Of a DNA stretch of 64,000 nt, positions 35,517 through 52,795 are shown in pieces. This DNA comes from a virus, in IMG/VR virus record IMGVR_UViG_3300028920_000038, positions 32,001 through 96,000 of that record; one strand, 5' to 3'. Below the pieces are notes generated by a model. That model did no database searches. It had not been told where the DNA came from and saw only the letters and a program-made list of their open reading frames with translations. How positions within the stretch are numbered: position 1 is the stretch's first letter; each line of letters opens with the position of its first letter. Both the position numbers and the translations under genes were made by a program.

Positions 35517-35518
35517 AT

Positions 35519-35734
35519 ATGAAATGTCCTAATTGTAATTCTAAAGATGTTATTACTAATACAACCCGGAAATCTAAAAAAGATTATCTTGTAATAAGAT
35601 ATAAGGAATGTAAAAGCTGTAGTTATAAATTCAAAACTTGGGAATCTCTAAATAATTTAAATTGGAAAATGAAATATAAAAAACTGTTAAATAATATAAA
35701 AGATCTATATGAAAGAGAAGATGACATGTCCTAA
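35519..35734 (+). CDS. NrdR-like zinc-ribbon protein
   Basis: MKCPNCNSKDVITNT...RYKECKSCSYKFKTWE. Confidence 0.7.
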   Translation: MKCPNCNSKDVITNTTRKSKKDYLVIRYKECKSCSYKFKTWESLNNLNWKMKYKKLLNNIKDLYEREDDMS

Positions 35735-36158
35735 TTGCGAAAATGAAATGACTTGTACAGATTCATTAATATATCCTAATGGAGATACAAAGAAATATTA
35801 TAAATGCAAAAAATGTAATACCGCATTATTTTCTATATTGAGACCAGAGGAGATTATTAAAATATTTATACCATATGAAAAACCAGAAATTATAAATAAA
35901 GAAATTATAGAAGCAACTAGACAGTATGCTATAAGTGTATATGGAGATAGTTGCATACTATGTGGAGAAAATAGACTTGTAGATGTGCATCATCTAATTC
36001 CAAGAAGTAAAGGTGGAGAGGATAAAATAGAAAATTTAGTTGTTTTATGTCCAACTTGTCATTATTCAATACATAGAAATAAAATTTCTGAATCAGAATA
36101 TTTAAAATTATTAAAAAATCAGAGAAAAATATTGTACAAAATCTTGGAAAATAGATAA
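35721..36158 (+). CDS. HNH endonuclease with N-terminal zinc ribbon
   Basis: CILCG, DVHHLIP..GG....NLVVLCPTCH. Confidence 0.85.
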   Translation: MTCPNCENEMTCTDSLIYPNGDTKKYYKCKKCNTALFSILRPEEIIKIFIPYEKPEIINKEIIEATRQYAISVYGDSCILCGENRLVDVHHLIPRSKGGEDKIENLVVLCPTCHYSIHRNKISESEYLKLLKNQRKILYKILENR

Positions 36159-36213
36159 TGTACTACATATAGTACAAATTGAAATATATAACATTAGATA
36201 AACTATAGTACAC

Positions 36214-36243
36214 TTTTGCTTATAATAATTTTTATAAGCAAAA
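36214..36243. other. Perfect 12-6-12 inverted repeat, dif/tyrosine-recombinase-site-like
   Basis: TTTTGCTTATAA-TAATTT-TTATAAGCAAAA. Confidence 0.55.
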
Positions 36244-36301
36244 TCTATATACTTAACGTGTAAAAAGTACCTTTCTAAACAACTTTATAGGGAGAGAGAA
36301 T

Positions 36302-36505
36302 ATGACATGGAAAATTGGTGACAAATTTAAATTCAAAAGACCTAAAAATTTATTAGAATTCACGGCAGAGATTATTGGTATATATAACGGTGAATTTGTG
36401 CAATTTAAAATAATAGAATGCAACCAAAAACATTTAATTGGAAAAGAAAAATTCTTTAAAATAGGACAAGAGGCAGAAAGATCTATAAAGAGGATTTGTG
36501 ATTAA
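36302..36505 (+). CDS. Small SH3-like protein
   Basis: WKIGDKFKF pattern; RBS GGGAGA. Confidence 0.5.
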   Translation: MTWKIGDKFKFKRPKNLLEFTAEIIGIYNGEFVQFKIIECNQKHLIGKEKFFKIGQEAERSIKRICD

Positions 36506-37422
36506 TGAATATAGGCCAGTTTAATGCAAGAGGACCTCATAATGGAGTGGAACATTGGTTTGATTTAATTCATGACGAATTAATAAATCAAGGCCATGAA
36601 GTTAGACAATTCTGGTTACGAGGAGATCAACCAACTAAAGAAGATAAAGAATGGATGGATTTCGCTTTATTTCATTTTTCACAAGTTGCTCTTCATTATA
36701 TGAGATTAGGAGTTCCTTATTGTATATTACCATCAGCTAACGATTGCTTTCCTGATAATGGAGCTAAGCTTAAAAAAGCAGCTTCACATAAGAATTGCAA
36801 GTTTGTGACTTATCAAAGTCAATATCACTTAGAAAAGTATAAGGAATGGAATATTCCCAAACCTAAGGTATATGTGCCTATGCCTGCTAGAATAGATTTA
36901 TTTAAAAGAACAAAACCAGTTGGCACTAAAATTATAGCAGGTGGTAGGTTGATACCAAAGAAAGGGTTAGATAAATTACCTAATAGATCAGATTTATATA
37001 TATTTGGTGATGGTCCTCTACGGACACGACTGGTGTGTCGCCTCCCGAAGGTAAACTTCGTGGGATGGTTAGAAGGTGAAGAGCTAAGAGATCTTATGGA
37101 AGACTCATGGCTCTTCCTTAATCCTTCTATTGAAACAGAAGATGGAGATAAAGAAGGTATACCAAATACATTGAAGGAAGCACTATTAATGGAATTGCAT
37201 GTGATATCTAGTCCAATAGCTGGAATCCCAGAACTTAAACATGTGAATCTTGTAAAAGATTGGTCAGATATATATATAAATGGATATATAAAAGATTTAG
37301 AAAAAATAAATCAAGGATATACATTTTATAAATTCAGAGGAAATTTAGAAGGTAAAGAAGAAATTAGGAATATATACTCTCCTGAAAATTGTGTAAATAA
37401 ATTATTGGAGATGATAAAATAG
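36505..37422 (+). CDS. GT4 glycosyltransferase
   Basis: GRLIPKKG and EGIPNTLKEALL (Ex7E). Confidence 0.85.
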   Translation: MNIGQFNARGPHNGVEHWFDLIHDELINQGHEVRQFWLRGDQPTKEDKEWMDFALFHFSQVALHYMRLGVPYCILPSANDCFPDNGAKLKKAASHKNCKFVTYQSQYHLEKYKEWNIPKPKVYVPMPARIDLFKRTKPVGTKIIAGGRLIPKKGLDKLPNRSDLYIFGDGPLRTRLVCRLPKVNFVGWLEGEELRDLMEDSWLFLNPSIETEDGDKEGIPNTLKEALLMELHVISSPIAGIPELKHVNLVKDWSDIYINGYIKDLEKINQGYTFYKFRGNLEGKEEIRNIYSPENCVNKLLEMIK

Positions 37423-38432
37423 AAAATGATGCATTTAATAATAATAAAATTTTATTGCACGGAGACAAGTTAAAAGAATATATGGATAATAAAAAAACAT
37501 CCTCTCCTATAACTTTAACCATAGACCTTACTAATAAATGTAATAATAAATGTCCGAAATGCGTTACAAGATTTAAAAATAGTGAAACACTTAGTTATAA
37601 ATTTATAGTTAATTTACTATATGATCTAAAGAAATTAGGAGTTAGAGGAATTCAAATAACTGGAGGTGGGGAACCTTTATTACATCCAAGAATAGTGGAT
37701 ATCATAGAGTTAGGAAATAATCTAGGATTTAGTATAGGTTTAGTGACTAGTGGACAGTATGTAGATGGATTAGATAAAAAAAGACTATTAGAAAATCTTA
37801 AATGGATAAGAATTTCATTAGATGCTGGAACACCAGAACATTACAAAGAAACTCATGGATTAGAATCAGATAAATTCGATAGAGTAATAAAATTTATTTA
37901 TGATCTTTGTGACTTTAAAATAGAGAATAATATCCCTGTGACAATAGGAGCAAGTTATCTAGTTTCTCTATGGGATAAAGATAGGGAAGAAGAAGATATT
38001 CATAAAGCAGTTGAGATATTACAAATACCAGGTTTTGATTATTTACAGGTAAAACAATATCACGGAAATAAAATAGAAATAGATTATTTAGATAAAACTA
38101 AAATGATATCTAATATAAACTTATATAATACATTTAAGACTAGGAGATATAATAGAAATTATAAATATTGTCATGGAGCTCACTTTACTACATCAATATC
38201 TGCTGATGGAAAATTATATGTATGCTGTCATTTGAAGAATGAAGAATTATATCCAATAGCAGATTTAAACAAAGAAAGTATATTAGATGTTTGGAATAGT
38301 AAAAAAATGTTAGATATTATTAAAGATTTAGATATATCTAAATGTATATCTAATTGTAAATATAATACATTAAATTGTGTATTAGAAGATGCAATTAGAA
38401 AAAATAAATCATTCCATAAGGATTTTTTATGA
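37419..38432 (+). CDS. Radical SAM enzyme with SPASM/twitch domain
   Basis: CNNKCPKC, TGGGEP, RISLDA, YCHG...DGKLYVCC; start probably ATA 37419 (track start TTG 37455). Confidence 0.9.
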   Translation: MENDAFNNNKILLHGDKLKEYMDNKKTSSPITLTIDLTNKCNNKCPKCVTRFKNSETLSYKFIVNLLYDLKKLGVRGIQITGGGEPLLHPRIVDIIELGNNLGFSIGLVTSGQYVDGLDKKRLLENLKWIRISLDAGTPEHYKETHGLESDKFDRVIKFIYDLCDFKIENNIPVTIGASYLVSLWDKDREEEDIHKAVEILQIPGFDYLQVKQYHGNKIEIDYLDKTKMISNINLYNTFKTRRYNRNYKYCHGAHFTTSISADGKLYVCCHLKNEELYPIADLNKESILDVWNSKKMLDIIKDLDISKCISNCKYNTLNCVLEDAIRKNKSFHKDFL

Positions 38433-39235
38433 AAGATAAAATAACTATTGTTACATTTACACACTATTGGACAAATGCTCCAAGTACAGAATTGATAGAT
38501 AAAACATTTGATAGTCTATATAGTAGATTACCATTAACTGATTGTAGACATATTATAAATTATGATATGCCTGAAAATAATAAAAAGTATAGAGAATATT
38601 ATAATAATCTATTAAAATTAAAGGATAAATATAATAAGAATATAGAGATTACAACATTCTCTATAAAAAATAAAAAGCGTTCTTATATATATTCAGATAT
38701 AGTTGATACTATAACAACTCCTTATGTAATTCTTTGGGAGCATGATTTTGTTCTTTTACGGGATATAGATTTAGAATCTATTATAAATGCTATGGATTAT
38801 CATGAAGAGATAAATTATATAAAATTTAATAAGAGAATAAATAAACCTACTATAAATAGGAGAGATAGCACTAAAAAAACTATTGATGGATGGTTAGAAA
38901 AAGAAGATAGATACGAAATTCCTCTATTAAAAACTTGTGGCTATTCAGGATCTCCTCATATAGAAAGAGTTTCATGGTTTAAATGTGTATGTAAGAAATT
39001 AATTTATACCATACCTGTAAATAAACAAACATCTATAGAGAGAGCTATAAATAAATGGTTATTTCATAAAAGAAATAGATTTGGTGAAAAAAAATTTCAT
39101 AATAAAGTTGGATTATATATATATGGAAATATTAATGATAAACCTTATGTAAAAGAAATATATGACTATAAAAGTAAAGAAGCTTGGGGGAATAAACTAC
39201 CGAGTAAAACCTGGAGAAAAATTAATGAAAAATAA
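38429..39235 (+). CDS. GT-A glycosyltransferase-like
   Basis: WEHD (DxD-like) motif; island context. Confidence 0.55.
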   Translation: MKDKITIVTFTHYWTNAPSTELIDKTFDSLYSRLPLTDCRHIINYDMPENNKKYREYYNNLLKLKDKYNKNIEITTFSIKNKKRSYIYSDIVDTITTPYVILWEHDFVLLRDIDLESIINAMDYHEEINYIKFNKRINKPTINRRDSTKKTIDGWLEKEDRYEIPLLKTCGYSGSPHIERVSWFKCVCKKLIYTIPVNKQTSIERAINKWLFHKRNRFGEKKFHNKVGLYIYGNINDKPYVKEIYDYKSKEAWGNKLPSKTWRKINEK

Positions 39236-39836
39236 TGAACTAATAAAAAATGATATAGATAAATATATTTATGACAATTTATTTTTAATGAAAGATTTAT
39301 GGACTAAAGGAAAGGAATTAGGTGGAAAACCTGTAATACAAATTTTTCCTCACGATATTTTGGTAATAGTTCAATGGTTAAAATTAATAAAACCAAAAAC
39401 ATTGTTAGAGATAGGTACAGCTTTTGGAGGAAGTGGTTGTATATTAAAAATGGCTTTTCCAGATCTAAAATATATAACATTAGATTTACCTCCTCCTAGC
39501 GATTGGGTGAGAACTCATAATCAAGCAGGAAGATTTTTACCTTCAGATGTTATAAAGGAATATGGAGACTCAAAAGATGTTCTGTCTGATCTTATTGATA
39601 AATATAAACCAGATGTAATATTCCATGATGGAGATCATTCAGAAGATCCAGTTAAAAGAGATATTAAAGTCTGTTACGATAAAAAAATAAAATGGGTAAT
39701 ATTACATGATTCTCATAAAACATATTTGAGACAATTCTTACTTCATAATAATTATTATGAAGAAGTTTATTTCATTCACCTTAAAGGATTTGTAACTCCA
39801 TCTCCAGGTATATCTATACTTAAATTGAAAGAATGA
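39225..39836 (+). CDS. Class I SAM methyltransferase (Methyltransf_24/CmcI-like)
   Basis: LEIGTAFGGS, FHDGDH and LHD. Confidence 0.8.
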   Translation: MKNNELIKNDIDKYIYDNLFLMKDLWTKGKELGGKPVIQIFPHDILVIVQWLKLIKPKTLLEIGTAFGGSGCILKMAFPDLKYITLDLPPPSDWVRTHNQAGRFLPSDVIKEYGDSKDVLSDLIDKYKPDVIFHDGDHSEDPVKRDIKVCYDKKIKWVILHDSHKTYLRQFLLHNNYYEEVYFIHLKGFVTPSPGISILKLKE

Positions 39837-40459
39837 AAGAAACTATTTTATTTATAGGACCTCATCCAGATGATATAGAGATAAGTTGTGGAGGATCATT
39901 ATCTTATTTCAGCAAAGAATATTATACTGTATGTATATACCTAACTAAAGGAGAGATGGGTGGAGATCCTATAATAAGAGAAGAAGAGAGTAAATTATCT
40001 TGTGATATTTTAGGAGCAGATAAGATAATATTTGGAAATTTCAGAGATACATGTATTCCATATAATATTGAAACTATAAGTTTCTTAGAACAACAATACA
40101 ATAGGTATAAACCAAGTATTATATTTATTCCGAGTTCAAAAGATAGTCATCAAGATCATAGAAAAACAAATCTCTCTTGTAAAGCTGCATTTAGAAAAGC
40201 TAATAGAATATTAGAATATGAAACCTCTTCAGTAGATAATAATTATAATCCAGTATTTTTTATAGATATTAGTGAATTTATAGAAATAAAAGAAAAGGCC
40301 TTAAAAATGCATAAAACACAAATGCATAAAAATGCAATGGATTACAAAGCAATTATAAATTTGTCAAGTTTTAGAGGAAGACAAGTAAATGTAAACAATG
40401 CAGAAGCATTTGAAATAGTGAAATATTTATATGACAACTATAGCAATACATCAACCTAA
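39833..40459 (+). CDS. PIG-L/LmbE-family deacetylase
   Basis: GPHPDDIE, REEES and HQDH. Confidence 0.9.
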   Translation: MKETILFIGPHPDDIEISCGGSLSYFSKEYYTVCIYLTKGEMGGDPIIREEESKLSCDILGADKIIFGNFRDTCIPYNIETISFLEQQYNRYKPSIIFIPSSKDSHQDHRKTNLSCKAAFRKANRILEYETSSVDNNYNPVFFIDISEFIEIKEKALKMHKTQMHKNAMDYKAIINLSSFRGRQVNVNNAEAFEIVKYLYDNYSNTST

Positions 40460-41117
40460 TTATCTACCTTATATTGGGTTTTTTCATAAAATCCTTATTA
40501 GTGATATTTTTATTATATATGATGATGCCCAATATTCTAGAAAAGATTTTCATAGAAGAAATAGAATAAAAATTAATTCAAAACAAAAGTGGTTATCAGT
40601 ACCATTGATAGGAAGTAGTTTTAATAAAATTAATGAAATGAGAATCAATAATAATATAGAATGGCAAAAAGAACATTGGAAATTTATAAACATATCATAT
40701 GAAAAATCTTCATATTTTCCAGAGATCATAGATGCATTTTATGATATTTATCATAAAGAATATAAATATCTCATAGATATAAATATGGATTTAATATTTA
40801 AATTAATGGATATTCTTGACTTAGATAATAATAAAATAGTATTTAGCTCAAAAATGAATTTAAAAAAGACCAAAGTGGATAGATTAATAGAGATGATAAA
40901 AAAGAAAGAAGGAACAACCTATTTTAGTGGAATAGGGGGTAAAAATTATATAGATGAAACATTATTTTTGGAAAATAATATAAATTTAATATACCAGAAA
41001 TTTGATCATCCAATCTATAAACAAATAAAAGGAGATTTTATACCAAATTTATCTATAATAGATATGCTATTTAACTGTGGTGAAGAATATACAAAAAATA
41101 AATTAAGAGAATTATAA
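40431..41117 (+). CDS. WbqC-like protein
   Basis: AIHQPNYLPYIGFFHK, NRIK, YFSGIGG and LSIIDMLFN. Confidence 0.9.
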   Translation: MTTIAIHQPNYLPYIGFFHKILISDIFIIYDDAQYSRKDFHRRNRIKINSKQKWLSVPLIGSSFNKINEMRINNNIEWQKEHWKFINISYEKSSYFPEIIDAFYDIYHKEYKYLIDINMDLIFKLMDILDLDNNKIVFSSKMNLKKTKVDRLIEMIKKKEGTTYFSGIGGKNYIDETLFLENNINLIYQKFDHPIYKQIKGDFIPNLSIIDMLFNCGEEYTKNKLREL

Positions 41118-41947
41118 TGGATGATTACAAAATATTTTATTCTTGCAATGCAAGTGAAGGAAAAATGTTAAAGTATTTATTTTATTCTATATTATCTGCT
41201 AGAAAATATATTAATAAAGAAGATGTATTAGTATATCTACACCCACCATATAATAATGAGAATACTGAATTAATAGATAAGATAAAGAAAATATCTAAAG
41301 TTACCAATTTGGATGATTACATTGGAATTCCATATTCTGTCCATCCAAAGTCAGATCCTAATAATAAAAGATATTTTGGAGAAAAATTAAATGTTATAAA
41401 TGTTGATTCTGATATAGTAATAGCATTAGATTGTGATACTTTTATATACAAAGATCCTATTATATTATTAGAAGGAGATTATGACTTTGGTGCAAATGCT
41501 ACAGATTTAACAAAAACTTCTTGGCAATCCAAGAATAATCTTATAGAAATTATGAGAAGAGTATATAAATTTAAACTAAGTGATGAAATACATTTATGGA
41601 ATGGAGGAACTTATATATTTAAAAATAGATCTCATAAGAAGATAGGAAAATATTGGTTAGATATTTTTAATAATGATAGAAATACTCTAGATTATTGTAT
41701 GAAACCAAATAGAAAAGTGTATGATCAAACTGCATTATCAGTAGCCACTGCTAAATACAGATTAAAATTAAAAACATTTTCTGATAAAGTCATATCAGAA
41801 GTAAGAGGAAAAGAAGGAAAATGGTCAAAAGACGATATCCCAGAAGAAAGTGTTATAGTACATGGGAATGGATTAGCAGATGGAATTGGAATGAAAGAAG
41901 AGTTAGATTTATTTTATTGTAAATTGATAGGTGATAGTCATGACTAA
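41117..41947 (+). CDS. GT-A glycosyltransferase (GT8-like)
   Basis: LDCD (DxD), NGG and DQ motifs. Confidence 0.65.
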   Translation: MDDYKIFYSCNASEGKMLKYLFYSILSARKYINKEDVLVYLHPPYNNENTELIDKIKKISKVTNLDDYIGIPYSVHPKSDPNNKRYFGEKLNVINVDSDIVIALDCDTFIYKDPIILLEGDYDFGANATDLTKTSWQSKNNLIEIMRRVYKFKLSDEIHLWNGGTYIFKNRSHKKIGKYWLDIFNNDRNTLDYCMKPNRKVYDQTALSVATAKYRLKLKTFSDKVISEVRGKEGKWSKDDIPEESVIVHGNGLADGIGMKEELDLFYCKLIGDSHD

Positions 41948-42947
41948 GATATCAGTATTATTAGCAACAAATAGAGTAAATAGGAATGTATTCCCATATA
42001 TACAAAAGTGTGTAGATGGATTAGATTATTTACAAGAAGATACATTTACAGATGAATTCTATGAATTGTGTAATAATACATTATTGAATATACAATACCA
42101 TTTCTTAGAGACTTCTCTTATATCTCTTTCAAATCAAAAATTCAAAGATTTTGAAGTTATTATATCTCATAGATATCCAAAAGATGCAGAGATGATAGTT
42201 AAGGAATATGTAGATAATTATAATGTCCCAATTAGATTAGTGAAAGAGAAGCATTCGGTATGGCATGATTTAGGAGAACAATACCATACAGTAGCTAATA
42301 ATAAGAATACCGCATTCATAAATTCATCTGGTGAATTGATATATCATATAGATGATCTTACATTTTTTAATGAAAATCTTTTACAAGAAGCTTGGGATGA
42401 ATATCAAAATGGTAATTATATGACTGGAAGAACGGTAAGGTGTATAACATATGATAAAAATTTAGAAAACTCGATAGATAAAGTGGGACCTAATAAGATA
42501 CAAATAACTAAGAATGGTTGGACTGGACAAAAGAAACCTTTAACTAACGATAAATACATTCCTATGAATATGTTTTGGACTTGCAGTGCATCTGTATCGG
42601 CAGAGGAATTATTAGAGATAAATGGATATGATGAGTTATATGATGGATCATTAGCTGGAATAGATATGGATGCTGGAAATAGGTTATCACGTATTAGTAA
42701 TTATAATAGAATAGCTAGCGAAAATTACCTATATGAAATAGATGATCCTACACCGAAGAATATGGTTAGAGATGATGTTCTTATGAGAAAGATATTTAGA
42801 GTAAGTCATATAAGAGCTAATTCTTGGAAACCTAAAAAATTTCAGATTAGGAGATATGAGAATTGGCATAAACATACATTAGGAGAATTAGATCCTAATT
42901 GGGATAAATTTATGGACATTCCATTTTATAATATAGAGAGAATATGA
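41931..42947 (+). CDS. GT2-like glycosyltransferase
   Basis: ISVLLAT, KNTA, IDD, INGYDE and D.D.G.RL. Confidence 0.75.
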   Translation: MIVMTKISVLLATNRVNRNVFPYIQKCVDGLDYLQEDTFTDEFYELCNNTLLNIQYHFLETSLISLSNQKFKDFEVIISHRYPKDAEMIVKEYVDNYNVPIRLVKEKHSVWHDLGEQYHTVANNKNTAFINSSGELIYHIDDLTFFNENLLQEAWDEYQNGNYMTGRTVRCITYDKNLENSIDKVGPNKIQITKNGWTGQKKPLTNDKYIPMNMFWTCSASVSAEELLEINGYDELYDGSLAGIDMDAGNRLSRISNYNRIASENYLYEIDDPTPKNMVRDDVLMRKIFRVSHIRANSWKPKKFQIRRYENWHKHTLGELDPNWDKFMDIPFYNIERI

Positions 42948-43624
42948 AAATAGAAAATATTAAATATCATCTAGTTGCTAATCATAAAATAGCATACAAA
43001 TTAAATTCTGAAGAAATACTAAATGAAAATTCTGTAATTTTTGACTGTGGTGCATATGTTGGGAAATTTACAGAAGAAATATTTAGATTAATTAATCCTA
43101 ATATAAATATGTTTTTATACGAACCTAATATAATTTTATATAAAAAACTAGTAGATAAATTTGAAAATAAGGAGAATGTAAATATTTTTAATAAAGCAAT
43201 TTCAAATAAAGTTGGTTTTAATAATTTGTATTTAGGTAAAAATTTGAATGAGAGTAGTTTAAAAAAATCAAAGAAAGGATTGACTAATGATTATTTAAAT
43301 GTAGAAACAACAACTATACCGAATGAAATAATAAAATTAAATTTAAAGTATATAGATGTTATAAAATTAAATGTAGAAGGAGAAGAATTAGATATTATAA
43401 ATAATTTAGATAAAGGTGTTCTAGAGAAAATAGGACAATTTGCTGTTGCATTTCATTTAAATAATGGAATAAAAGATTATACACAAGAAATTCATGATAA
43501 TACTATAAAATATATGATAAATAATGGATTTACTTCTAGTAATTACTATAAAAATAAACATAAATTATTTTTTAATGAAAAGTGGTATAATACTGACAAA
43601 TATAAGGAGTTAAGATATGGATAG
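42944..43624 (+). CDS. FkbM-family methyltransferase
   Basis: FDCGAYVG, YEP and KLNVEGEE. Confidence 0.85.
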   Translation: MKIENIKYHLVANHKIAYKLNSEEILNENSVIFDCGAYVGKFTEEIFRLINPNINMFLYEPNIILYKKLVDKFENKENVNIFNKAISNKVGFNNLYLGKNLNESSLKKSKKGLTNDYLNVETTTIPNEIIKLNLKYIDVIKLNVEGEELDIINNLDKGVLEKIGQFAVAFHLNNGIKDYTQEIHDNTIKYMINNGFTSSNYYKNKHKLFFNEKWYNTDKYKELRYG

Positions 43625-44624
43625 AGAAATATTAATAACTGGAGGATGTGGTTTTATAGGACATCATCTAGCAGAGCATTTATTGAAAAACACTAATTGG
43701 AATATAAAAATACTGGATAGTTTGACATATGCAGGCATACAAAAAAGAATAACAGATATGGGAGCTTATAAAGATAATAAAGATAGAATAAAATTTATAT
43801 TTCATGATTTAAGAGCAGAATTAAATAAAACAACTATAAAAGATTTAGGACAATTAGATTATATTGTTCATATGGCTGCAGAGACACATGTAGATAATAG
43901 TTTAATAGATGCTAGACCATTTATAGAAACAAATGTTATTGGTACTATGAATTTATTAAATTATATAAAAGATAATGATATCGGATTAAAACGGTTTATT
44001 AACTTCAGTACTGATGAAGTTTATGGATCTGCTCCGGATGATTATGATTATAAAGAAGATGATAGATGGAGACCTTCTAATCCGTATTCTGCTAGTAAAT
44101 GTGGACAATCTGCATTAGGAATTGCTTATGCAACATCATTTGGTTTACCTATTATACATACTTATACAATGAATGTTTTTGGGGAGAGACAACATCCAGA
44201 GAAATTAATACCTAAAACTATAAGAACATTTAAAGAAGGGAAACCAATGACAATTCATTGTAAAAAAGAAGGAGATAAAGTTACAGAAATAGGAAAAAGA
44301 TATTGGCTCCATGCAAGAAATGCATCCGATGCAGTTCTATTTCTGTTAGATAAGGGTAAAAATAATGATCACTATAATATAGTAGGAGATATAGAATTAA
44401 CCAATTTGGAGATGACAGATAAAATAGCTAAATATATGGGATTAGATAATCCAAAGTATGATTTTGTAGATTTTCATAAAACTAGACCAGGCCATGATAG
44501 AAGATATTCTCTAGATGGAAATAAACTACGGAAAATGGGATGGAAAGCAAAAGTAGATTTTGAAGAATCTTTAGACAGAACCGTAAAATGGTCTATTAAT
44601 AATATGGATTGGCTATATTTATGA
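43617..44624 (+). CDS. rmlB: dTDP-glucose 4,6-dehydratase
   Basis: GGCGFIG, HMAAETHVD, STDEVYG, YSASK and RPGHDRRY. Confidence 0.9.
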   Translation: MDREILITGGCGFIGHHLAEHLLKNTNWNIKILDSLTYAGIQKRITDMGAYKDNKDRIKFIFHDLRAELNKTTIKDLGQLDYIVHMAAETHVDNSLIDARPFIETNVIGTMNLLNYIKDNDIGLKRFINFSTDEVYGSAPDDYDYKEDDRWRPSNPYSASKCGQSALGIAYATSFGLPIIHTYTMNVFGERQHPEKLIPKTIRTFKEGKPMTIHCKKEGDKVTEIGKRYWLHARNASDAVLFLLDKGKNNDHYNIVGDIELTNLEMTDKIAKYMGLDNPKYDFVDFHKTRPGHDRRYSLDGNKLRKMGWKAKVDFEESLDRTVKWSINNMDWLYL

Positions 44625-45838
44625 AACATAAAATAAGGAATGAATGTCTAATATGTAAAAATAAGAATCTTCACAAATTTTTAGAATTAGGGAACATGCC
44701 TCTCCCTAATAAATTTATAGATAAAGAGGAATTTAATAATGAGGAGTTCTATCCATTAAATGTATACGTTTGTGATAAGTGTTTTCTTGTACAATTAAAG
44801 GATATTATAGATCCAAAACTTCTATTTGATGATTATTTGTATATGACAGGAACTTCAAAGCCATTGGTGGATCATTTAAAAACTTTAGCAAAAGATTCTC
44901 TGAAATATCATAAAGATGGTTTAGTTATAGATATAGGATGTAATGATGGAACTCTATTAAAACATTATAAAAAATTAAATTTTAATACTATTGGAATAGA
45001 CCCTGCAAAGAAAATAACAGATATTGGAAAAAAAGAAGGATTAAATATTATAAATGATTATTTTAGTAGTAAGTGTGTAAAAAAAATATTAGAAATGTAT
45101 GGGAAAGCTAATATAATAACAGCAACAAACGTATTTGCACATACAGAAGATATAAAAACTATAATAGAGGGAGTTCGTGATTTATTGACAGAGGATGGAG
45201 TATTTATTATAGAAGTTCATCATTTGATGAATCTTATATTAAATAATGAATTTGATACTATATATCACGAGCATATATCATATTTTAGTTTATCATCTCT
45301 AATTCATCTTTTTAATTTATATGATATGACAATAATAGATGTTAGAGAAATATCTAATCATGGAGGATCATTAAGAGTTTTTATTAAAAAAACTGGAACT
45401 CCTTCAGATAATGTTTTTAAAATAATTGATAAAGAAAAAGAATTAGGTTTGTATTCTTTAGATACATATAATAATTTCTCAGAAAAAGTTAATGATATAA
45501 AAGATGAATTGATTGATACATTAAAAAATTTAAAAGAAAATGGAAATAGAATTACTGGATATGGAGCTACAGCTAAAGGAAATATACTATTAAACTATTG
45601 TAATATTGGTCCTGATATTCTAGATTATATTAGTGATAGAACTCCATTTAAATGTGGGAAATATAGTCCAGGGATGCATATCCCTATAATATCTGAAGAT
45701 AAATTTCATGATGACAATCCAGATTATGTTTTATTATTGGCTTGGAATTATAAGGATAATATATTAATTAAGGAAGATAAATTCAGAAAAAATGGTGGAA
45801 AATTTATAATTCCTATACCTAAACCAGAAATATTATGA
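44609..45838 (+). CDS. NDP-sugar C-methyltransferase (zinc-binding N-terminus)
   Basis: CLIC...LELG..PL...VCDKCFLVQ, DIGCNDG, HEHISYFS, HGGSLR and GYGA.AKG. Confidence 0.9.
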   Translation: MAIFMKHKIRNECLICKNKNLHKFLELGNMPLPNKFIDKEEFNNEEFYPLNVYVCDKCFLVQLKDIIDPKLLFDDYLYMTGTSKPLVDHLKTLAKDSLKYHKDGLVIDIGCNDGTLLKHYKKLNFNTIGIDPAKKITDIGKKEGLNIINDYFSSKCVKKILEMYGKANIITATNVFAHTEDIKTIIEGVRDLLTEDGVFIIEVHHLMNLILNNEFDTIYHEHISYFSLSSLIHLFNLYDMTIIDVREISNHGGSLRVFIKKTGTPSDNVFKIIDKEKELGLYSLDTYNNFSEKVNDIKDELIDTLKNLKENGNRITGYGATAKGNILLNYCNIGPDILDYISDRTPFKCGKYSPGMHIPIISEDKFHDDNPDYVLLLAWNYKDNILIKEDKFRKNGGKFIIPIPKPEIL

Positions 45839-46482
45839 TAGTTTATACTTCAATTTTTAATAATAATGATAGATTACCAGAACCATTAATTAAGAATAAA
45901 AATATAGAATATATTTGTTTTACAGATGGGCTCAAAAGAAGCAAAAAATCTATATGGAAAATAAAAACTGTGGATGGAATATACGATGGAACTAGGAATA
46001 ATAGATATTATAAAATAAATTCTCATTTATTTTTTCCATCAGAAGAGATTGTATTATATTTAGATCCAACATTTCTAATAATAAAGGATTTTTATAATAA
46101 AATTGAGGAATGGCTTGGAGATAAAGACATAGCTATTAGACCTCATCCTAAGAGAAAATCTATATATGAAGAAGCTGAATATTTAATAAATAATAAACCA
46201 CATAAGATAGATAGTAAAGAATTAATTATAAAACAAATGAATATGCTTAAAAATGAAGATTATCCTGAATCTGAACCTTTATGTGAAGGAGGATTTATTA
46301 TTAGAAGAAACACTGAACAAGTTAAGAAATTTAATGAGATGTGGTGGAATATAGTAAAGAATTATAGTAAGAGAGATCAATTGAGTTTTAATTATGTATC
46401 ATGGAAATTAGGAATAGGTTATAATTTAATAGAGAGAAAGGAAGTTGAAGAATATACCAGGAGAATAGCATGGCATCCTTAA
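45835..46482 (+). CDS. DUF616/TOD1-MUCI70-like glycosyltransferase
   Basis: VYTSI...D, YICFTD, RYYK..H, HP.R...YEE and RDQLSF. Confidence 0.8.
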   Translation: MIVYTSIFNNNDRLPEPLIKNKNIEYICFTDGLKRSKKSIWKIKTVDGIYDGTRNNRYYKINSHLFFPSEEIVLYLDPTFLIIKDFYNKIEEWLGDKDIAIRPHPKRKSIYEEAEYLINNKPHKIDSKELIIKQMNMLKNEDYPESEPLCEGGFIIRRNTEQVKKFNEMWWNIVKNYSKRDQLSFNYVSWKLGIGYNLIERKEVEEYTRRIAWHP

Positions 46483-47210
46483 GAAAGTTAGTAGTATTAA
46501 CTACAGTTGGATTAACAGATTATGTTATAGGAGCATTAGAATCTCTTAAAGAAGAAGAAGCTGATATACTCCTTATAGATGATGGAAGTTCAGTAGATTA
46601 TTCTTATATAATTAATAATTATGAAATAGATTTAATACAAAAGAAAAAAGGTAAAGGAGTTACAGATTCATGGAATATAGCATATAAATTATTTAAAGAT
46701 AATTATGATTATTGTTTATTTTCTAATGATGATGTAATATTCCCAGGAAGAGTACCTCCTGATATGTGGAATGGTTTGGAGAAATATATATTTTTAGGTC
46801 CTTTATCTGATCCTATAGGAAGTGGTAGATTCATGGGTAATTTTCAGAATATTACTACGTATCTTAGAGGAGTAAAAGATTTTAAAGATGTCAAATTAAT
46901 TCAGAATAGATTACAAAAGATACATCCTAATAAAAAGTATCTAGAAATAGGTAAAGATATAGTATTTCAAAGAAAAGAACCTCCATATATTAATGGCTTT
47001 TGTTTTTCTTTTAATAAGGATATAATTGAATATGAATTTCAAAAGGATATTTTATTTAATCCAAAGTATACAAATTCTGGAAATGATAAAGAATTGCAGA
47101 GAGATCGATTAAATAAAGGAAAGGCAATATCTATTAAATCTTATATATTTCACTATAAAGGAGGAACAATAGACCCTTATAGTAATACAAGACAGGAGAT
47201 TATTAATTAA
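46470..47210 (+). CDS. GT2 glycosyltransferase
   Basis: IDDGS, WN and SNDD. Confidence 0.75.
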   Translation: MASLRKLVVLTTVGLTDYVIGALESLKEEEADILLIDDGSSVDYSYIINNYEIDLIQKKKGKGVTDSWNIAYKLFKDNYDYCLFSNDDVIFPGRVPPDMWNGLEKYIFLGPLSDPIGSGRFMGNFQNITTYLRGVKDFKDVKLIQNRLQKIHPNKKYLEIGKDIVFQRKEPPYINGFCFSFNKDIIEYEFQKDILFNPKYTNSGNDKELQRDRLNKGKAISIKSYIFHYKGGTIDPYSNTRQEIIN

Positions 47211-48025
47211 TGATAATAATTACGATAGATGGTTTAAATTGGGATACAGCTAATAAATACTGTAAAGATATATTTGAAAATCAAAATATGAAAAAAATAA
47301 AAAATAATGTTAGATTATTTACAAATACACCAGATTCGGGCCAACCTACTCTTGTCGGTCTTACGTGTCTTTGGAGTGGAGAAAAAATTAGAAACTTTGA
47401 TAAAAATTTATTTGCTAGGGTAAATCCAAAATACAATGAGAATTATAAACTCTCATTTAAAGATAAGAGTGGAAATGATTTTGATTTAATATTTAACTAT
47501 TTTAATAAACCAAAAATTCAACTATCTCATCATGGAGGAAATCCTTATTCAAATAATGAAAAATATTTTAAATACTGGACAACACTAGAACCAAAAGTAA
47601 GAATATGCCCATCTGAAGAATGGTGTATAATACCTGAATTATTAAAGAAAGATTATGATTTTTTTCATATTCATACAGAAATTGGTAAGATAGGAGTATT
47701 ACAACATGGTCCTTACGAACAAGGGAGAATGCCTGCTTGTATTCCTTATGATCAAATAAGACAAGATAAAGAATTAAAAAAAGAAGTATATTTATTTGGT
47801 CTTAAAAGATGGATATTTATTATTAAAGAATATTTATCAAAGATGATTGATGATACAATAATAATAACAGCAGATCATGGAACATCATTAGAAAAAATAT
47901 TCAAACCAGAATACATTGATGACATTCCATTAATAATTAATAGAGATGTAGATTTATCAAATGTGACATATCAATGGGAATTAAAAAATTTTATAGTCGA
48001 TTTAAATGAAAGATATAAAGAATAA
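47210..48025 (+). CDS. Alkaline-phosphatase superfamily protein (candidate phosphonate transferase)
   Basis: ITIDG, PTLVGLTCLWSG (Thr), H, and TADHG. Confidence 0.7.
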   Translation: MIIITIDGLNWDTANKYCKDIFENQNMKKIKNNVRLFTNTPDSGQPTLVGLTCLWSGEKIRNFDKNLFARVNPKYNENYKLSFKDKSGNDFDLIFNYFNKPKIQLSHHGGNPYSNNEKYFKYWTTLEPKVRICPSEEWCIIPELLKKDYDFFHIHTEIGKIGVLQHGPYEQGRMPACIPYDQIRQDKELKKEVYLFGLKRWIFIIKEYLSKMIDDTIIITADHGTSLEKIFKPEYIDDIPLIINRDVDLSNVTYQWELKNFIVDLNERYKE

Positions 48026-48350
48026 ATTTGGAGTTCCTTGCAGTCAATTGAAAGAGTATTTAGATGGAACTGAAATACCTTGTACTTCTGAAGTTGAAGC
48101 GATGGCAATGGCTGCAGGAGCTTGGTTTGCAGGTAAAAAACCAGAAGTTTATATGCAAAATAGTGGACTAGGACATATAGTGGATATTGTGTCTAGTTTA
48201 TATAAACCTTATAAAATTCCATTACCAAGAATGTATTTGAGTATTAGATTCAAACCAAAACATCATTATGATATGTTTTTATATACTCCTTCTATTCTAT
48301 TATTAATGGAATATGATGATGTTTTTGAGATCATGCAAGATGACAACTAG
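48006..48350 (+). CDS. Phosphonopyruvate decarboxylase, alpha (PYR) subunit
   Basis: GVPCS, E.EA..MAAGAW.AGK.P and MQNSGLG. Confidence 0.85.
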   Translation: MKDIKNKFGVPCSQLKEYLDGTEIPCTSEVEAMAMAAGAWFAGKKPEVYMQNSGLGHIVDIVSSLYKPYKIPLPRMYLSIRFKPKHHYDMFLYTPSILLLMEYDDVFEIMQDDN

Positions 48351-48816
48351 AAAAAAATCTATAGAAAAAATTTTGGAATTAAATCAAAATTCATTAATTA
48401 TATCATCTGCAGGTTATACATCTAGATCCTTATATGAAGTTAAAGATGCTCCAAATCATTTTTATATGATGGGATCAATGGGATGTGCATTACCATTTGC
48501 TATTGGATTAGCTTTAAATACTGATAAGGAAGTGGTAGCTATAATCGGAGATGGAGAATTATTAATGAATTTTAGTTCTCTTATACAAACTGAGAATTTA
48601 AAATTAGATAATTTAACTATTTATATATTAGATAATAATATGTATCAATCAACTGGAGGACAAAAGACTATTAGTGAATATATTCCAAAGTGTGGATTTA
48701 ATGTATGGACTATTAGTATAGAAGATGATCATATACCTCCAAGGATTCCTATAAGTCATAAAGAAATATCGGAGAGATTCTATGAGCACATTAATGGTGT
48801 GCAGCAAATCAACTAA
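48340..48816 (+). CDS. Phosphonopyruvate decarboxylase, beta (PP) subunit
   Basis: GYTSR, FYMMGSMG and TPP motif GDGELLMN...DN...STGGQ. Confidence 0.85.
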   Translation: MTTRKKSIEKILELNQNSLIISSAGYTSRSLYEVKDAPNHFYMMGSMGCALPFAIGLALNTDKEVVAIIGDGELLMNFSSLIQTENLKLDNLTIYILDNNMYQSTGGQKTISEYIPKCGFNVWTISIEDDHIPPRIPISHKEISERFYEHINGVQQIN

Positions 48817-49405
48817 AAAATATACTAAACTGTATAATTATGATGAATTATTAATAGTGAAAGAACCTCCAAATAAAGAAACTTTAAAAAAGAAAGATCT
48901 TTATCATAATGTTGTAGCAATAGGAGGAGGAAGTGTCATAGATACAGCTAAGATTTTAAGTATGAATTCAGTGATAGCTATTCCTACTACATATTCTGGA
49001 GCATCTGAGACTTCTCATGCAGTCTATTGGGATAATGGAATGAAATATGATATAGAATGTATTAAACCTATATCTGTTTTGAGAAAAGAATTTATAAATT
49101 TACCTAAACATATTGAAGTAGCTACTAAAATAGATTGCATTTCTCATATTATAGAAAGTTTAATTTCAAAGAATTCTACCATAGATTCTGATAAATACGC
49201 TCTTATAGCTATTAATTTTATAAAAGAAGATAAATGGTTAGAAGCAAGTATATATGCTGGTAAGGCTATTGATATAACTGGTACCAATATTATACATGCT
49301 ATGTCCTATTCATTAACTGGGGTATATGAATTACCTCATGGAGTATCTTTGTTAAAAATATTTGAATTAGCTAAACATTATAAGAAATTAGAGGAATTAT
49401 TATGA
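48782..49405 (+). CDS. Iron-containing alcohol dehydrogenase (phosphonoacetaldehyde reductase, FomC/PhpC-like), short form
   Basis: [10 protein letters not shown] and AIPTT; metal ligands DxxxH, H and HG. Confidence 0.8.
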
Positions 49406-50673
49406 AAACCGTTTATGTAGGAATGTCAGCCGATTTTATTCATGATGGTCATATAAATATAATAAATATTGCTAGAAATTATGGTAATATAATAATAGGA
49501 CTATTAACTGATGAAGCTATAGCATCATATAAAAGAGTACCTTTATTGTCTTACGAAAAAAGGAAAAAGATATTAGAGAATATAAAATATGTATATAAAG
49601 TAGTGCCACAGAAAACATTAGATTATACCGATAATCTTAAGAAATATAAACCAAATTACGTTGTACATGGAGATGATTGGAAAAAAGGAATACAAAAAGA
49701 AATAAGAAATAAAGTTATAGAAACTTTAAAAGAATGGAATGGAGAATTAATTGAACCTGAATATACAAAAGGTATATCATCTACATTACTTATAAACGAT
49801 AAATTAAATCAAGGAGTTACACCTAATTATAGAAGAGGTAAATTGAAAAAGCTTCTAGAATTAAAGTCATACATAAGAATATTAGAAGCTCATAGTGGTA
49901 TATCTGGTATAGTTGTAGAAAGATCTAATTATAATGGAAAAGAATTTGACGGGATATGGATATCAAGTTTGACAGATTCTACTTCTAAAGGAAAACCAGA
50001 CATAGAAATAGTAGATTTTACATCAAGAATACAAACCATTAATGAGATATTAGAAGTAACCACTAAACCTATTATAGTAGATATTGATACAGGAGGTCAA
50101 ATAGATCATTTTGTATATATGATAAAAACCTTAGAAAGACTAGGAGTATCTGCAATTATAGTAGAAGATAAAACATTTCCTAAAAGGAATTCACTGTCAG
50201 AAGGAGAAATTCACATACAAGAAGATAAAGAGACATTTTGTAGAAAGATAAGAGCTGGAATACAATCTAGAATAACAGATGATTTTATGATAATAGCTAG
50301 AATAGAATCATTTATAACCGGAGAAGAAGTTGATCTTGCATTAAATAGAGCTAAAGACTACATAGAAGCTGGTGCAGATGGTATTATGATACATAGTAAA
50401 AAGAGTAATCCCAAAGATTTAATATTATTTTGTGATGAATATAAGAAATTTAAAAATAGAGTTCCATTAATTTTAGTTCCTACTACATATAATTGGATGA
50501 AAGAAGAAGAGTTAAATTCTTTAGGTGCTAATATTATTATATATGCTAATCATCTATTAAGATCATCATATAAATCTATGAAAGAAGTAGCTAAAGAAAT
50601 ATTAAAAAATGAAAGAAGTTTAGAAGTAAATGATATGTGTACAAGTGTTAAGGAGATATTAGAATTAATATGA
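49402..50673 (+). CDS. pepM: Cytidylyltransferase-phosphoenolpyruvate mutase fusion (Fom1-like)
   Basis: N-terminal HDGH CyTase; C-terminal EAHSG, DIDTG and the PepM signature [10 protein letters not shown]. Confidence 0.95.
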
Positions 50674-51503
50674 TAATTGGTATAATAGGATTCGGAATGG
50701 TTGGTAGAGCAATACATCATGGTTTTGCTCAAATATGTGATTTTAAAATTTATGATAAAGATAAGAAATTATCAGAAAATACATTAAAAGAAACTTTAGT
50801 AAATAGTGATTTTATATTTATATGTGTGCCTACTCCAATGAAAAAAGAAAATGGAGAAATAGATTTAAAATCTTTAGATAGTACATTGTCTTACGCTAAT
50901 AAATATATACCAAGAGAAGATAAAATATTGATTATTAAATCAACAATAGTTCCAGGTACTACAGATAGTTATATAAAAAAATATCCAAATCTAAATATTA
51001 TATTTAATCCAGAATTTCTAACAGCTCGTACATCTAAATTGGATTTTATTAATTCGTCTAGAGTCATATTGGGAGGGGATCCTAAATTAACCAGTAGAGT
51101 AGCAGATTTATATGGAAAAAGATTTACACATACTCCTATTTATCTAACAGACGCAAGAACAGCTGAATTAGTTAAATATACAGCTAATTGTTTCTTTGCG
51201 ACTAAGGTTTCGTTTTTTAACGAAATTTTTGATATATGCCGAAAGTTAGATATAAGATATGAAGATGTAAGAGATATGACATTAGCGGATGGGAGAATAG
51301 GCAATTCTCATACAGATGTTCCAGGTCATGACGGTTTAAGGGGATTTGGTGGATTATGCTTTCCAAAGGACCTTAATTCTATGATATACAAAGCTGAAGA
51401 ATTAGGTGTAGATCCTAAAGTTATGAAAGCTGTATGGGAAAAAAACATTGAAGTAAGAGAAAAGAAAGATTGGGAGAAAATCGAAGGTGCGGTCTCAGAT
51501 TAA
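50670..51503 (+). CDS. UDP-glucose/GDP-mannose dehydrogenase family, short form
   Basis: [29 protein letters not shown] and [10 protein letters not shown]. Confidence 0.9.
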
Positions 51504-52194
51504 AAAAGCTGTAATTCCTGCAGCTGGTTTAGGTACTAGATTCTATCCTATAACCAAATGTATACCAAAAGAAATGTTACCTATAAAAAATAAGCCTATA
51601 ATTCATTATGTCATTGATGAAGCAATTCAATCTGGAATTACTGATATAGCAATTATAACAAGAAAAGGCAAAACAGTAATAGAAGATTATATAGATGAAA
51701 TGAATTTTGAGGCTAATTTCTATTACTTAAGACAGAAATACCCAATGGGATTAGGTCATGCAGTACTAACAGCAGAAGGATTTATAGGAGAAGAAGACTT
51801 TGCTGTACTTTTAGGAGATGATCTATTAGATAATAATAGGGATCTACAAAATATGATGAAATTAAATCACTGCATAGCAGTGGAATCTGTAGTAGATCCG
51901 AGTAAATATGGAGTAGTATCTATTAAAGATAATAAAATAATAGATATAATTGAAAAACCAAAAAAGAATGCTCCGAGTAATTACGGAGTAGTGGGTAGAT
52001 ACATTCTACCTTATAAAATATTTAAATATATTAAAAAACAAAAGACAGATGAAAATGATGAGATTCAACTAACATACGCAATTCGGGATATGATAAGAGA
52101 AGGATATTCTTTTAGTCCTTATTATCTAACCGGAAAGCGTTATGACTGTGGAACTCCAGATTCGTATAAGGGCTGTTTTTTGGACTATTTTTAA
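51487..52194 (+). CDS. galU: UTP-glucose-1-phosphate uridylyltransferase
   Basis: AAGLGTRF, PKEMLP, GLGHA and EIQLT. Confidence 0.9.
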   Translation: MRSQIKKAVIPAAGLGTRFYPITKCIPKEMLPIKNKPIIHYVIDEAIQSGITDIAIITRKGKTVIEDYIDEMNFEANFYYLRQKYPMGLGHAVLTAEGFIGEEDFAVLLGDDLLDNNRDLQNMMKLNHCIAVESVVDPSKYGVVSIKDNKIIDIIEKPKKNAPSNYGVVGRYILPYKIFKYIKKQKTDENDEIQLTYAIRDMIREGYSFSPYYLTGKRYDCGTPDSYKGCFLDYF

Positions 52195-52204
52195 GTACCC
52201 TTAC

Positions 52205-52290
52205 CTATACCATTCGTTTTAAAAAAAGGTGTTATAGTAACTAATTTTGAGTCAATTTTTAGGAACTATTCCTAATTTTTGAGCTTTTTT
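52205..52290 (-). repeat. Iterated element, copy 2 (inverted relative to 11144-11225)
   Basis: Reverse complement of 52205-52248 reads AAAATTAGTTAC-TATAACA-n9-AAAACGAATGGTATAG. Confidence 0.8.
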
Positions 52291-52292
52291 TT
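52255..52292 (+). terminator. Probable terminator between convergent operons
   Basis: TAGGAA-CTA-TTCCTA hairpin followed by T5 and T8 tracts. Confidence 0.5.
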
Positions 52293-52309: not shown

Positions 52310-52795
52310 TTATAACCCTGAAGATCCACTAACAAACCCTTCTATTTTTGTGTGGATCCAATCTATAGTATCTAAAGTAGTTGTAGTTATATTTTTTACA
52401 TATAGGAGAGTGTTTTTTCTCATATTTTTTAGATTAGACCCATTCATAGCAGATGAGCTTGGTGTAGGATATAATCTTAAAGTATTCTCTCCAGTCCATG
52501 TCTGATCATAATAAGTAGGTCTACCAAGAATCTTATATAACTCTCCAGTTGCTCCAGGGGTTACATTAGACATTAGGGTATTTAATTGTGTTTCATCTAA
52601 CCAAGTTGAGACTGTTACAGAGTAATTCTCAACATCCCAGCGAGAACACTTACAATCTATAAAATCGTCTCCATCTAAGGAATTATAAAAAATAGCTAAA
52701 TCATTTTCAAATTTAAATAACGTAGGGATATCTCTAAAAGTGATACCTTCATCATCATCGAAATGATAAGTAAAAGAATAGTGACTTGTTGGCAT
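52310..52795 (-). CDS. Tail protein consisting mainly of a shared ~120-aa module
   Basis: Paralogous to the C-termini of 58574..59458 and 59458..60684. Confidence 0.65.
   Translation of the reverse strand: MPTSHYSFTYHFDDDEGITFRDIPTLFKFENDLAIFYNSLDGDDFIDCKCSRWDVENYSVTVSTWLDETQLNTLMSNVTPGATGELYKILGRPTYYDQTWTGENTLRLYPTPSSSAMNGSNLKNMRKNTLLYVKNITTTTLDTIDWIHTKIEGFVSGSSGL

Follow-up and report, generated by a model that had tools for sequence, protein, structure and literature searches.

A strongly miniaturised gene cassette for a predicted early phosphonate pathway in an uncultured tailed virus from marine sediment

Four overlapping plus-strand open reading frames (ORFs) lie at 48006–48350 (114 aa), 48313–48816 (167 aa), 48782–49405 (207 aa) and 49402–50673 (423 aa) of a 64,000-nucleotide stretch of viral DNA, and resemble enzymes of phosphonate synthesis. 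This stretch, referred to as the window, comprises bases 32001–96000 of the 137,847-bp IMG/VR record IMGVR_UViG_3300028920_000038 (CheckV completeness rating 87%), which represents an uncultured tailed virus from marine sediment. A first-pass annotation of this DNA had described the four genes as translationally coupled and had assigned them to a split phosphonopyruvate decarboxylase (Ppd), an iron-type alcohol dehydrogenase (Fe-ADH) and a fusion of a cytidylyltransferase with a phosphoenolpyruvate (PEP) mutase (CyTase-PepM). The ORFs were indeed found exactly where it had placed them, and Pfam and PDB matches (9IZ3_A/B, 1VHD/1O2D, 5X3D and 1M1B) agreed with its assignments, the gene order being ppdA-ppdB-adh-pepM. 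Counted from the gene preceding ppdA, successive genes overlap by 20, 38, 35 and 4 nt (the 38 shrinking to 11 with a second-gene start at 48340), and Shine-Dalgarno-like GGAGAG and GAGG sequences are located 5–8 nt before the ADH and PepM starts. The same gene string in a related virus encodes orthologs of 121, 169, 207 and 427 aa that are 63, 51, 56 and 67% identical, respectively. That the reading frames have stayed intact at 51–67% identity argues for purifying selection; since synonymous sites are saturated between the two viruses at this level of protein identity, dN/dS was set aside.

The 423-aa protein (49402..50673, plus strand) has the make-up of a Fom1-type bifunctional cytidylyltransferase–PEP mutase, with Pfam matches to PEP_mutase (4.5e-53) and, in its N-terminal part, to CTP_transf_like (2.2e-16). 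The match to PF13714 scored 180.7 bits against a gathering cut-off of 31.5 and spanned profile positions 1–240 of 240. The EDKxxxxxNS signature noted in the first-pass annotation, which is the motif that separates Ppm from its isocitrate-lyase relatives, is present as [10 protein letters not shown] at residues 255–264 and was invariant in 22 homologs. Solved PEP mutases matched the PepM domain at about 1e-48 (among them 1M1B, 1.3e-48), and the structure of the Fom1 CyTase domain (5X3D_A) matched residues 3–130 at an E-value of 1.8e-48. The CyTase motifs are [11 protein letters not shown]14-x-G16-H17 (HxGH as H14-D-G-H17) and KGISST. Across the 22 homologs (59–70% identity), the HxGH motif, D200, D227, D229, E255-D256-K257, N263-S264, R300 and H331 were all invariant. 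In the alignment with 1M1B (the Mytilus PepM), D200, D227/D229, E255, R300 and H331 fall on the DxD, EDK, R and H positions of the Mg-site and catalytic residues. According to Cho et al. 2017, as cited in PMC6697681, the Fom1 CyTase domain makes CMP-2-hydroxyethylphosphonate (CMP-HEP) from CTP and 2-hydroxyethylphosphonate (HEP). PF01467 enzymes also activate phosphonoformate, and PntC, which belongs to another family (PF12804), activates 2-aminoethylphosphonate (AEP) (PMC8942020). For the viral enzyme, specificity for HEP and CTP is suggested by the adjoining reductase gene and by the lack of an adjoining aminotransferase gene. On another IMG/VR contig, IMGVR_UViG_3300030106_006270 (L105:4867-7272), the PepM ORF reaches 801 aa, with some 370 extra N-terminal residues.

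The two preceding halves of the cassette's predicted decarboxylase are considerably smaller than their known counterparts. The 114-aa protein (48006..48350, plus strand), a putative miniature Ppd alpha subunit carrying the pyrimidine-binding half, found its best PDB match in 9IZ3_A, itself a putative split-Ppd alpha subunit (E 2.2e-06, over 55 residues only, with a Glu aligned), and aligns to residues 21–96 of a 372-aa cellular Ppd. The 131-aa alpha ortholog on another contig (L003) does match TPP_enzyme_N, at 1.3e-06. The protein listed at 167 aa (48313..48816, plus strand), the putative beta subunit with the diphosphate-binding half, matched TPP_enzyme_C (1.4e-17) and 9IZ3_B, a Ppd beta subunit (4.4e-19), with the thiamine-diphosphate motif GDGELLMN...LDNN (GDG...NN) aligned, and corresponds to residues 183–301 of the cellular Ppd. 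Its true start is probably the ATG at 48340, giving a protein of about 158 aa: this ATG overlaps the upstream stop, and the alignment with the ortholog (51%) begins at residue 10 of the 167-aa listing. Canonical Ppds have subunits of about 170–190 aa, or some 370 aa when these are fused; the viral 114 + ~158 aa fall well short of this, compared with 181 + 186 aa in 9IZ3 and 345–389 aa in cells.

The 207-aa protein (48782..49405, plus strand) is a miniature iron-type alcohol dehydrogenase and the predicted phosphonoacetaldehyde reductase of the cassette. It matched the Pfam families ADH_Fe_C (1e-10) and Fe-ADH (1.1e-07) and belongs to a short-ADH family of about 300 metagenomic proteins of 203–290 aa. 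A GGGS sequence occupies residues 48–51, and the GGG together with D118, H122, H172 and H186 was invariant in 24 aligned family members (38–64% identity), the resulting Asp/His/His/His metal site aligning with that of 1VHD/1O2D. The family profile covers only residues 86–299 of this 371-aa Fe-ADH from T. maritima, with internal deletions, and at 207 aa the protein is too short for the full two-domain Fe-ADH fold of about 360–400 aa. Set against a 379-aa cellular ADH, the viral protein begins some 40 residues later and ends about 110 residues earlier, and it also lacks a 22-residue loop and a 14-residue insert. It represents a distinct miniature subfamily that would, at best, function like an Fe-ADH. 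In a metagenomic protein of 349 aa (P0140), the mini-ADH is fused to a cytidylyltransferase domain in one chain, which ties the formation of HEP to its cytidylylation.

On homology, these genes are best read as a route from PEP to CMP-HEP along the lines of Fom1, Fom2 and FomC, as the first-pass annotation had proposed; predicted catalytic residues are kept for all four activities. The PEP-mutase domain of the 423-aa fusion would convert PEP to phosphonopyruvate, from which the two-piece thiamine-diphosphate decarboxylase (114 + ~158 aa) would make phosphonoacetaldehyde, drawing the unfavourable mutase reaction forward. The 207-aa dehydrogenase would then reduce this aldehyde to HEP, and the N-terminal Fom1-type cytidylyltransferase domain would join HEP with CTP to yield CMP-HEP. 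In a last step, the hydroxyethylphosphonyl group of CMP-HEP would be transferred to a glycan or glycoprotein, the product of the surrounding island of soluble proteins, most likely by a 271-aa neighbour of the alkaline-phosphatase superfamily. We consider it likely, with a probability of roughly 0.7, that the cassette encodes a functional and strongly miniaturised early phosphonate pathway of viral origin. It may descend from a cellular cluster of the type PepM-Ppd-ADH-nucleotidyltransferase and would represent accessory cargo of a lineage of tailed viruses of about 140–155 kb from marine sediment, whose hosts are probably archaeal. The first-pass annotation had called the pathway complete, which is not established: the record yielded none of the known CMP-phosphonate transferases. 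The cassette it described is borne out; it was silent on the miniaturised enzymes, on the recurrence of the cassette in about 25 other viral contigs and on its absence from a close relative of 155 kb.

Three of the four enzymes are only half to three-quarters of normal size. The comparison included 24 loci from species-representative cellular genomes plus the metagenomic contig L125 (whose PepM is NCBI-labelled Woesearchaeota) on the one hand, and about 24 IMG/VR viral loci on the other. In the cellular loci and L125, Ppd is unsplit at 345–389 aa and ADH measures 338–391 aa, or both are fused at 720–750 aa, whereas in the viral loci Ppd is split into 111–145 + 151–169 aa and ADH spans 207–289 aa. 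The exceptions are two contigs from metagenome-assembled genomes (MAGs) labelled Omnitrophota (L011) and Planctomycetia (L012), in which Ppd is again split and miniature but ADH measures about 294–305 aa; the flanks of the Planctomycetia contig look cellular (asparagine synthase, CDP-alcohol phosphatidyltransferase). The window's capsid protein was not found in these two MAGs, which is uninformative. PepM is about 63% identical to its cellular counterparts and the mini proteins only 32–38%, indicating that the shrunken partners diverged much faster than PepM. A 277-aa UDP-glucose/GDP-mannose dehydrogenase-like protein encoded directly downstream is short as well, full-size versions on a related contig measuring 412–418 aa, and miniaturisation may be a general trait of the island.

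Profile scanning located the CyTase-PepM fusion on 29 IMG/VR contigs, about 24 of which also carry the split mini-Ppd and an ADH of 207–289 aa. Most cassette contigs have the order pepM-ppdA-ppdB-adh and an ADH of about 260 aa. The other IMG/VR mini cassettes (~22 loci) share with the window a split Ppd (121–145 + 151–169 aa), a shortened ADH (252–289 aa) and the CyTase-PepM fusion, but they differ in having pepM first, an ADH that is some 50 aa longer and unrelated capsids, whereas the window shows ppdA-ppdB-adh-pepM. Among the carriers are records of 139.8 kb and 189.2 kb, the latter with direct terminal repeats and rated 100% complete; the capsids of both are unrelated to that of the window. 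In a quick PepM tree, the deep branches of which are unresolved and in which the two MAG sequences (L011, L012) sit on a very long branch, the window's PepM groups with that of its close relative alone, and both stand apart from a well-supported clade that unites 13 viral sequences. Of five other viral records with the cassette, just one gave a Terminase_6N match, an uninformative result since terminase families differ. No PEP mutase was found on five shorter fragments of the window's capsid lineage, and among GenBank phage records the fusion was present only on two short, unannotated fecal contigs. The cultured Vibrio phage Va2 (MW073017.1, 109749-110366) has a gene annotated 'phosphoenolpyruvate mutase', with 47% of the query matched at 30% identity. 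On a 123-kb JGI contig from the related virus's sample (L009/L010), ppdA-ppdB is followed by a 133-aa ORF of no known family in the place of the ADH, and then by PepM. This region adjoins RFC, Cas4 and PolB genes and is surrounded by two LicD genes, a B12-binding radical SAM enzyme (Fom3 class), a SPASM radical SAM enzyme, an APS kinase and a pyruvate-kinase-like/CyTase fusion; the cassette there may make a different viral phosphonate.

The setting of the cassette is that of a tailed virus, as the first-pass annotation had held. The record carries a large terminase subunit (TerL; 12389-13798 of the record, with a Terminase_6C/6N match), an HK97-type major capsid protein (122495-123544; PHROG major head protein, 8.6e-12) and a prohead protease (123972-125531; head maturation protease, 3.4e-14), the combination that marks Caudoviricetes on a single contig. 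The window also holds PolB, a ribonucleotide reductase, ThyX, a Rad51-like ATPase and further replication genes. Elsewhere on the record, outside the window, an ORF of 718 aa (7515-9671, minus strand) combines a PAPS-reductase-like domain (PHROG 424, 3.6e-37) with an ATP-dependent DNA ligase.

Upstream of the cassette, the plus-strand island continues over 32705..47210 with genes that, according to Pfam matches across the island, build and modify sugars, in line with the many glycosyltransferases noted by the first-pass annotation: a cupin, epimerases/dehydratases, GT1, GT2 and a TOD1/MUCI70-like glycosyltransferase, a PIG-L deacetylase and WbqC, together with FkbM-, C- and other methyltransferases, a radical SAM/SPASM enzyme and an HNH endonuclease. 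The last of these (35709-36158) may be a mobile element adding to the variability of the island. Downstream, the gene for the shortened UDP-glucose/GDP-mannose dehydrogenase-like protein (50670..51503, plus strand; 277 aa) overlaps the PepM stop by 4 nt; its product matched UDPG_MGDP_dh (2.5e-23) and UDPG_MGDP_dh_N (1e-21, profile positions 66–181 only) and has no C-terminal domain. The last plus-strand gene of the island (51487..52194) encodes a sugar-phosphate nucleotidyltransferase of 235 aa (NTP_transferase, 5.5e-35), and an NTP_transferase likewise follows PepM-Ppd-ADH in the cellular cluster L125. The right boundary is set by the first gene of a convergent minus-strand virion module (52310..52795), which is conserved at 61% identity in the related virus. 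None of 27 island ORFs contained a hydrophobic 19-mer reaching a Kyte-Doolittle value of 1.6, which suggests that the island encodes a glycosylation system that is soluble and works in the cytoplasm.

Immediately upstream of ppdA lies the gene for the 271-aa soluble protein of the alkaline-phosphatase (AP) superfamily (47210..48025, plus strand), referred to here as AP271. It matched no Pfam family at E <= 0.01 and so could not be placed in PF00884 or PF01663. A single-sequence AlphaFold model (pLDDT 35) was discarded; an AlphaFold 2 model from a 7-sequence alignment reached a pLDDT of 76 and a pTM of 0.80. Foldseek returned 169 PDB matches to this model at E <= 0.001, all those listed belonging to the AP superfamily, whose core fold the model shows; the phosphoethanolamine transferases EptC, MCR-1, ICR-Mc and EptA came out on top, and the phosphoglycerol transferase GacH lower (E ~1e-6, TM ~0.55). 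In the ESM Atlas, structure search led to Phosphodiest/Sulfatase clusters with TM values of 0.63–0.71. D7-G8, H155 and D222-H223-G224 are invariant, and T47 lies at a helix N-terminus, beside an alignment gap in the related virus. AP271 resembles EptC, MCR-1, EptA and GacH in that its fold matches their catalytic domains (Foldseek probability 1.00) and in its metal-site-like D-G and D-H-G motifs, but it differs in its lack of a membrane domain, in its low identity (10–14%) and, presumably, in using a nucleotide donor (CMP-HEP) instead of a lipid. The family is rare, since a search of 1.84 billion representative proteins gave just 12 matches, of which 5 are full-length, and a 268-aa ortholog (46% identical) stands directly beside PepM in the related virus. 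Sulfatase-family genes also flank the L125 cassette, and cellular phosphonate clusters carry such neighbours (PMC9381506). Its rarity, its adjacency to PepM in both viruses, its fold match and these neighbours in cellular clusters make AP271 a candidate for handling the phosphonyl group of CMP-HEP, be it as a transferase or as a phosphodiesterase.

The CMP-activated C–P compound would probably serve to tag a sugar coat. Since the cassette sits inside a glycan island, surface decoration seems likelier than an antibiotic. The soluble machinery, and the lack of export genes in the record, make us lean slightly towards the virion or other cytoplasmic targets. Of the purposes named by the first-pass annotation, phosphorus sequestration found no support. 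Taking these ideas further, archaeal tailed viruses might tag their own virion proteins with phosphonate glycans in the cytoplasm by means of a self-sufficient set of much-reduced enzymes, the hitherto unrecognised AP271 family being the CMP-phosphonate transferase, a scenario that we regard as a long shot.

A number of observations weigh against a functional route to CMP-HEP. The mini-ADH has lost about 45% of the canonical fold (some 40–50 residues at the N-terminus, from the nucleotide-binding domain, an internal loop and about 70–110 C-terminal residues); the 114-aa protein has diverged too far for a significant match to any Pfam family, TPP_enzyme_N included; and the mini proteins have drifted from their cellular counterparts to the low identities given above. 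Moreover, the cassette is dispensable, as the 155-kb relative (87% complete, capsid 73% identical) has no PEP mutase, and one viral contig (L104) has its ADH in two pieces of 137 and 112 aa, the gene having probably been broken. The substrate of the CyTase is not fixed by sequence either, since PF01467 enzymes vary, and Pfam profiles revealed no LicD, CDP-alcohol phosphatidyltransferase, Wzx-type flippase or STT3/AglB in the record. The small sizes, the broken ADH and the relative without a cassette might in turn indicate that the shortened genes are decaying remnants, with PepM perhaps active, mini-Ppd and mini-ADH inactive and no phosphonate accumulating. This we consider quite improbable, because decay would not yield the same compact architecture in many lineages: lengths and frames are kept between the two viruses at 51–63% identity and in about 24 further viral contigs, the shortened genes have no internal stops, and the mini-ADH family of about 300 retains its metal ligands and GGG motif throughout the 24 members aligned. 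It is unlikely as well, though less so, that a phosphonate is made for which CMP-HEP is not the end donor, either because island enzymes such as the radical SAM/SPASM protein process HEP or CMP-HEP further (Fom3-like methylation, oxidation) or because the CyTase activates another phosphonate; something other than a hydroxyethylphosphonyl ester would then be the final decoration or be released as a free product. Cytidylylation is transient in fosfomycin synthesis (PMC6697681), B12-binding radical SAM enzymes, to which class Fom3 belongs, and LicD genes stand beside the same cassette on related viral contigs and likewise in L125, and the window itself has a radical SAM/SPASM gene (37455-38432) and five methyltransferases. 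However, this radical SAM enzyme is without a B12-binding domain and is encoded 10 kb upstream, and no aminotransferase adjoins the cassette. A continuation to methylphosphonate (MpnS) or via HepD was rejected, as Pfam gave no such larger cupin in the window, the sole cupin being a 118-aa protein of the mannose-6-phosphate isomerase type.

Two further alternatives concern the carrier of the route to CMP-HEP rather than its chemistry. The island could be a host island, or a chimera joining cellular glycan genes to a virus, given that its GC content (0.24–0.29 over 33000-52000) is below that of the replication and virion modules (0.30–0.34), that its genes have cellular homologs and that contigs independently assembled from a marine-sediment DNA run leave a gap in high-depth coverage at 49.5–50.3 kb, inside the PepM gene. 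We read this gap as a break of the assembly graph in a conserved gene and not as the sign of a join. The same contigs, from a run that may be the window's own source sample, have an even 84–98x depth over the island and the virion genes; one spans 42873-49536, and another, 50283-54427, bridges the boundary between island and virion module with zero mismatches. (The sequencing runs listed for this stretch comprise one DNA run, a marine sediment metagenome, and no RNA run.) Viral genes flank the island: PolB, ribonucleotide reductase and ThyX precede it, giant structural ORFs follow it, and the terminase and capsid genes lie beyond these. The mini form of the enzymes is typical of viral contigs and not of cells. 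In the related virus, a 144.5-kb IMG/VR record whose capsid is 74% identical, the cassette occupies the corresponding place in the genome and the plus-strand island stops against the same convergent minus-strand gene, which makes a chimera unlikely. Taken together, a non-viral origin is barely credible. The host is a more even matter. Although the first-pass annotation rightly saw archaeal hallmarks, the archaeal host it assumed is not established by them. In GenBank, the capsid protein is most similar to those of haloarchaeal tailed viruses (E 4e-25), and PolB to that of Halorubrum tailed virus 25; an XPF-type ERCC4-HhH nuclease and a Rad51-like recombinase are of archaeal type, and RFC and Cas4 occur on the cassette-bearing contig from the related virus's sample. 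A 296-aa protein (window 14817-15707), with a PriS-like N-terminus (weak, E 0.0025), a PriL-like C-terminus (3.6e-07) and mostly viral nearest Atlas clusters, looks like a fused archaeo-eukaryotic primase. On the other hand, capsid homologs of 58–60% identity occur in MAGs labelled Actinobacteria and Planctomycetota, split mini-Ppd cassettes stand on the Planctomycetia and Omnitrophota MAG contigs, and PCNA and MCM profiles gave nothing significant in the record, with DnaB likewise giving nothing. PolB, Rad51-like ATPases and ATP-dependent ligases are also known from bacteriophages, and the absence of tRNA genes from the whole record removes a further host hint. A bacterial host (e.g. a sediment planctomycete or a member of another phylum), in which the pathway would remodel the bacterial envelope or the phage particle, is accordingly a serious contender at somewhat less than even odds; the MAG labels may reflect mis-binning, and we lean modestly towards an archaeal host.

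In the sea, phosphonates are a large pool of organic phosphorus whose sources are poorly known; the producers known so far are cells. If the reading of this cassette as a source of HEP and CMP-HEP is true, it adds viruses, or cells reprogrammed by them, as phosphonate sources in sediments and water, and C–P-tagged glycans would be a tool in conflicts between viruses and hosts over the cell surface. Conserved across many viral lineages, the 207-aa Fe-ADH and the two-piece decarboxylase of about 270 aa define minimal predicted catalytic cores, and AP271 provides a concrete candidate for the so far uncharacterised phosphonyl-transfer step.

Among known systems, the early fosfomycin pathway of Streptomyces wedmorensis (Fom1, Fom2 = Ppd, FomC = Fe-ADH) shares with the cassette the same four activities, the fused CyTase-PepM and CMP-HEP as the predicted product. 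It belongs to an actinomycete instead of a virus, however, and the window differs in its split and shortened Ppd, its 207-aa ADH and the lack of Fom3, Fom4 and FomD in the window. Cellular clusters of the phosphonoglycan type (L125, Pelagibacteraceae and the methylphosphonate neighbourhood of Nitrosopumilus) resemble the cassette in their enzyme set, in a PF01467-PepM fusion with a PepM about 63% identical, and in having sulfatase/alkaline-phosphatase-family genes and glycosyltransferases as neighbours (PMC9381506). The L125 cluster, for instance, reads PepM 432 - Ppd 372 - ADH 379 - NTP_transferase (sizes in aa). Such clusters differ in their unsplit Ppd and full-length ADH of the sizes given above and their sulfatases of 376–455 aa, whereas the virus has ppdA-ppdB-adh-pepM and the 271-aa AP-superfamily protein. 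As for viruses, Li & Horsman 2022 (PMC8942020) reported no Ppm in RefSeq viruses or 364 huge phages and a single AEP neighbourhood in a giant-virus MAG (GCF 881). A full-text literature search brought up no virus-encoded phosphonate synthesis besides this giant-virus AEP cluster, and none in viruses of bacteria or archaea. Like the window, this cluster from a MAG of the nucleocytoplasmic large DNA viruses has a viral PepM/Ppd core beside sugar genes, which its authors read as a viral phosphonoglycan system (PMC8942020). Unlike the window, it belongs to a eukaryotic giant virus, has a Ppm-Ppd fusion and uses an aminotransferase leading to AEP, whereas the window, from a tailed virus of prokaryotes, combines a reductase predicted to lead to HEP with a CyTase fusion and mini enzymes. 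The chemistry and each of the enzyme families are already known; the novelty lies in tailed viruses of prokaryotes as the carrier, in the systematic way in which the enzymes are miniaturised and in a candidate transfer enzyme.

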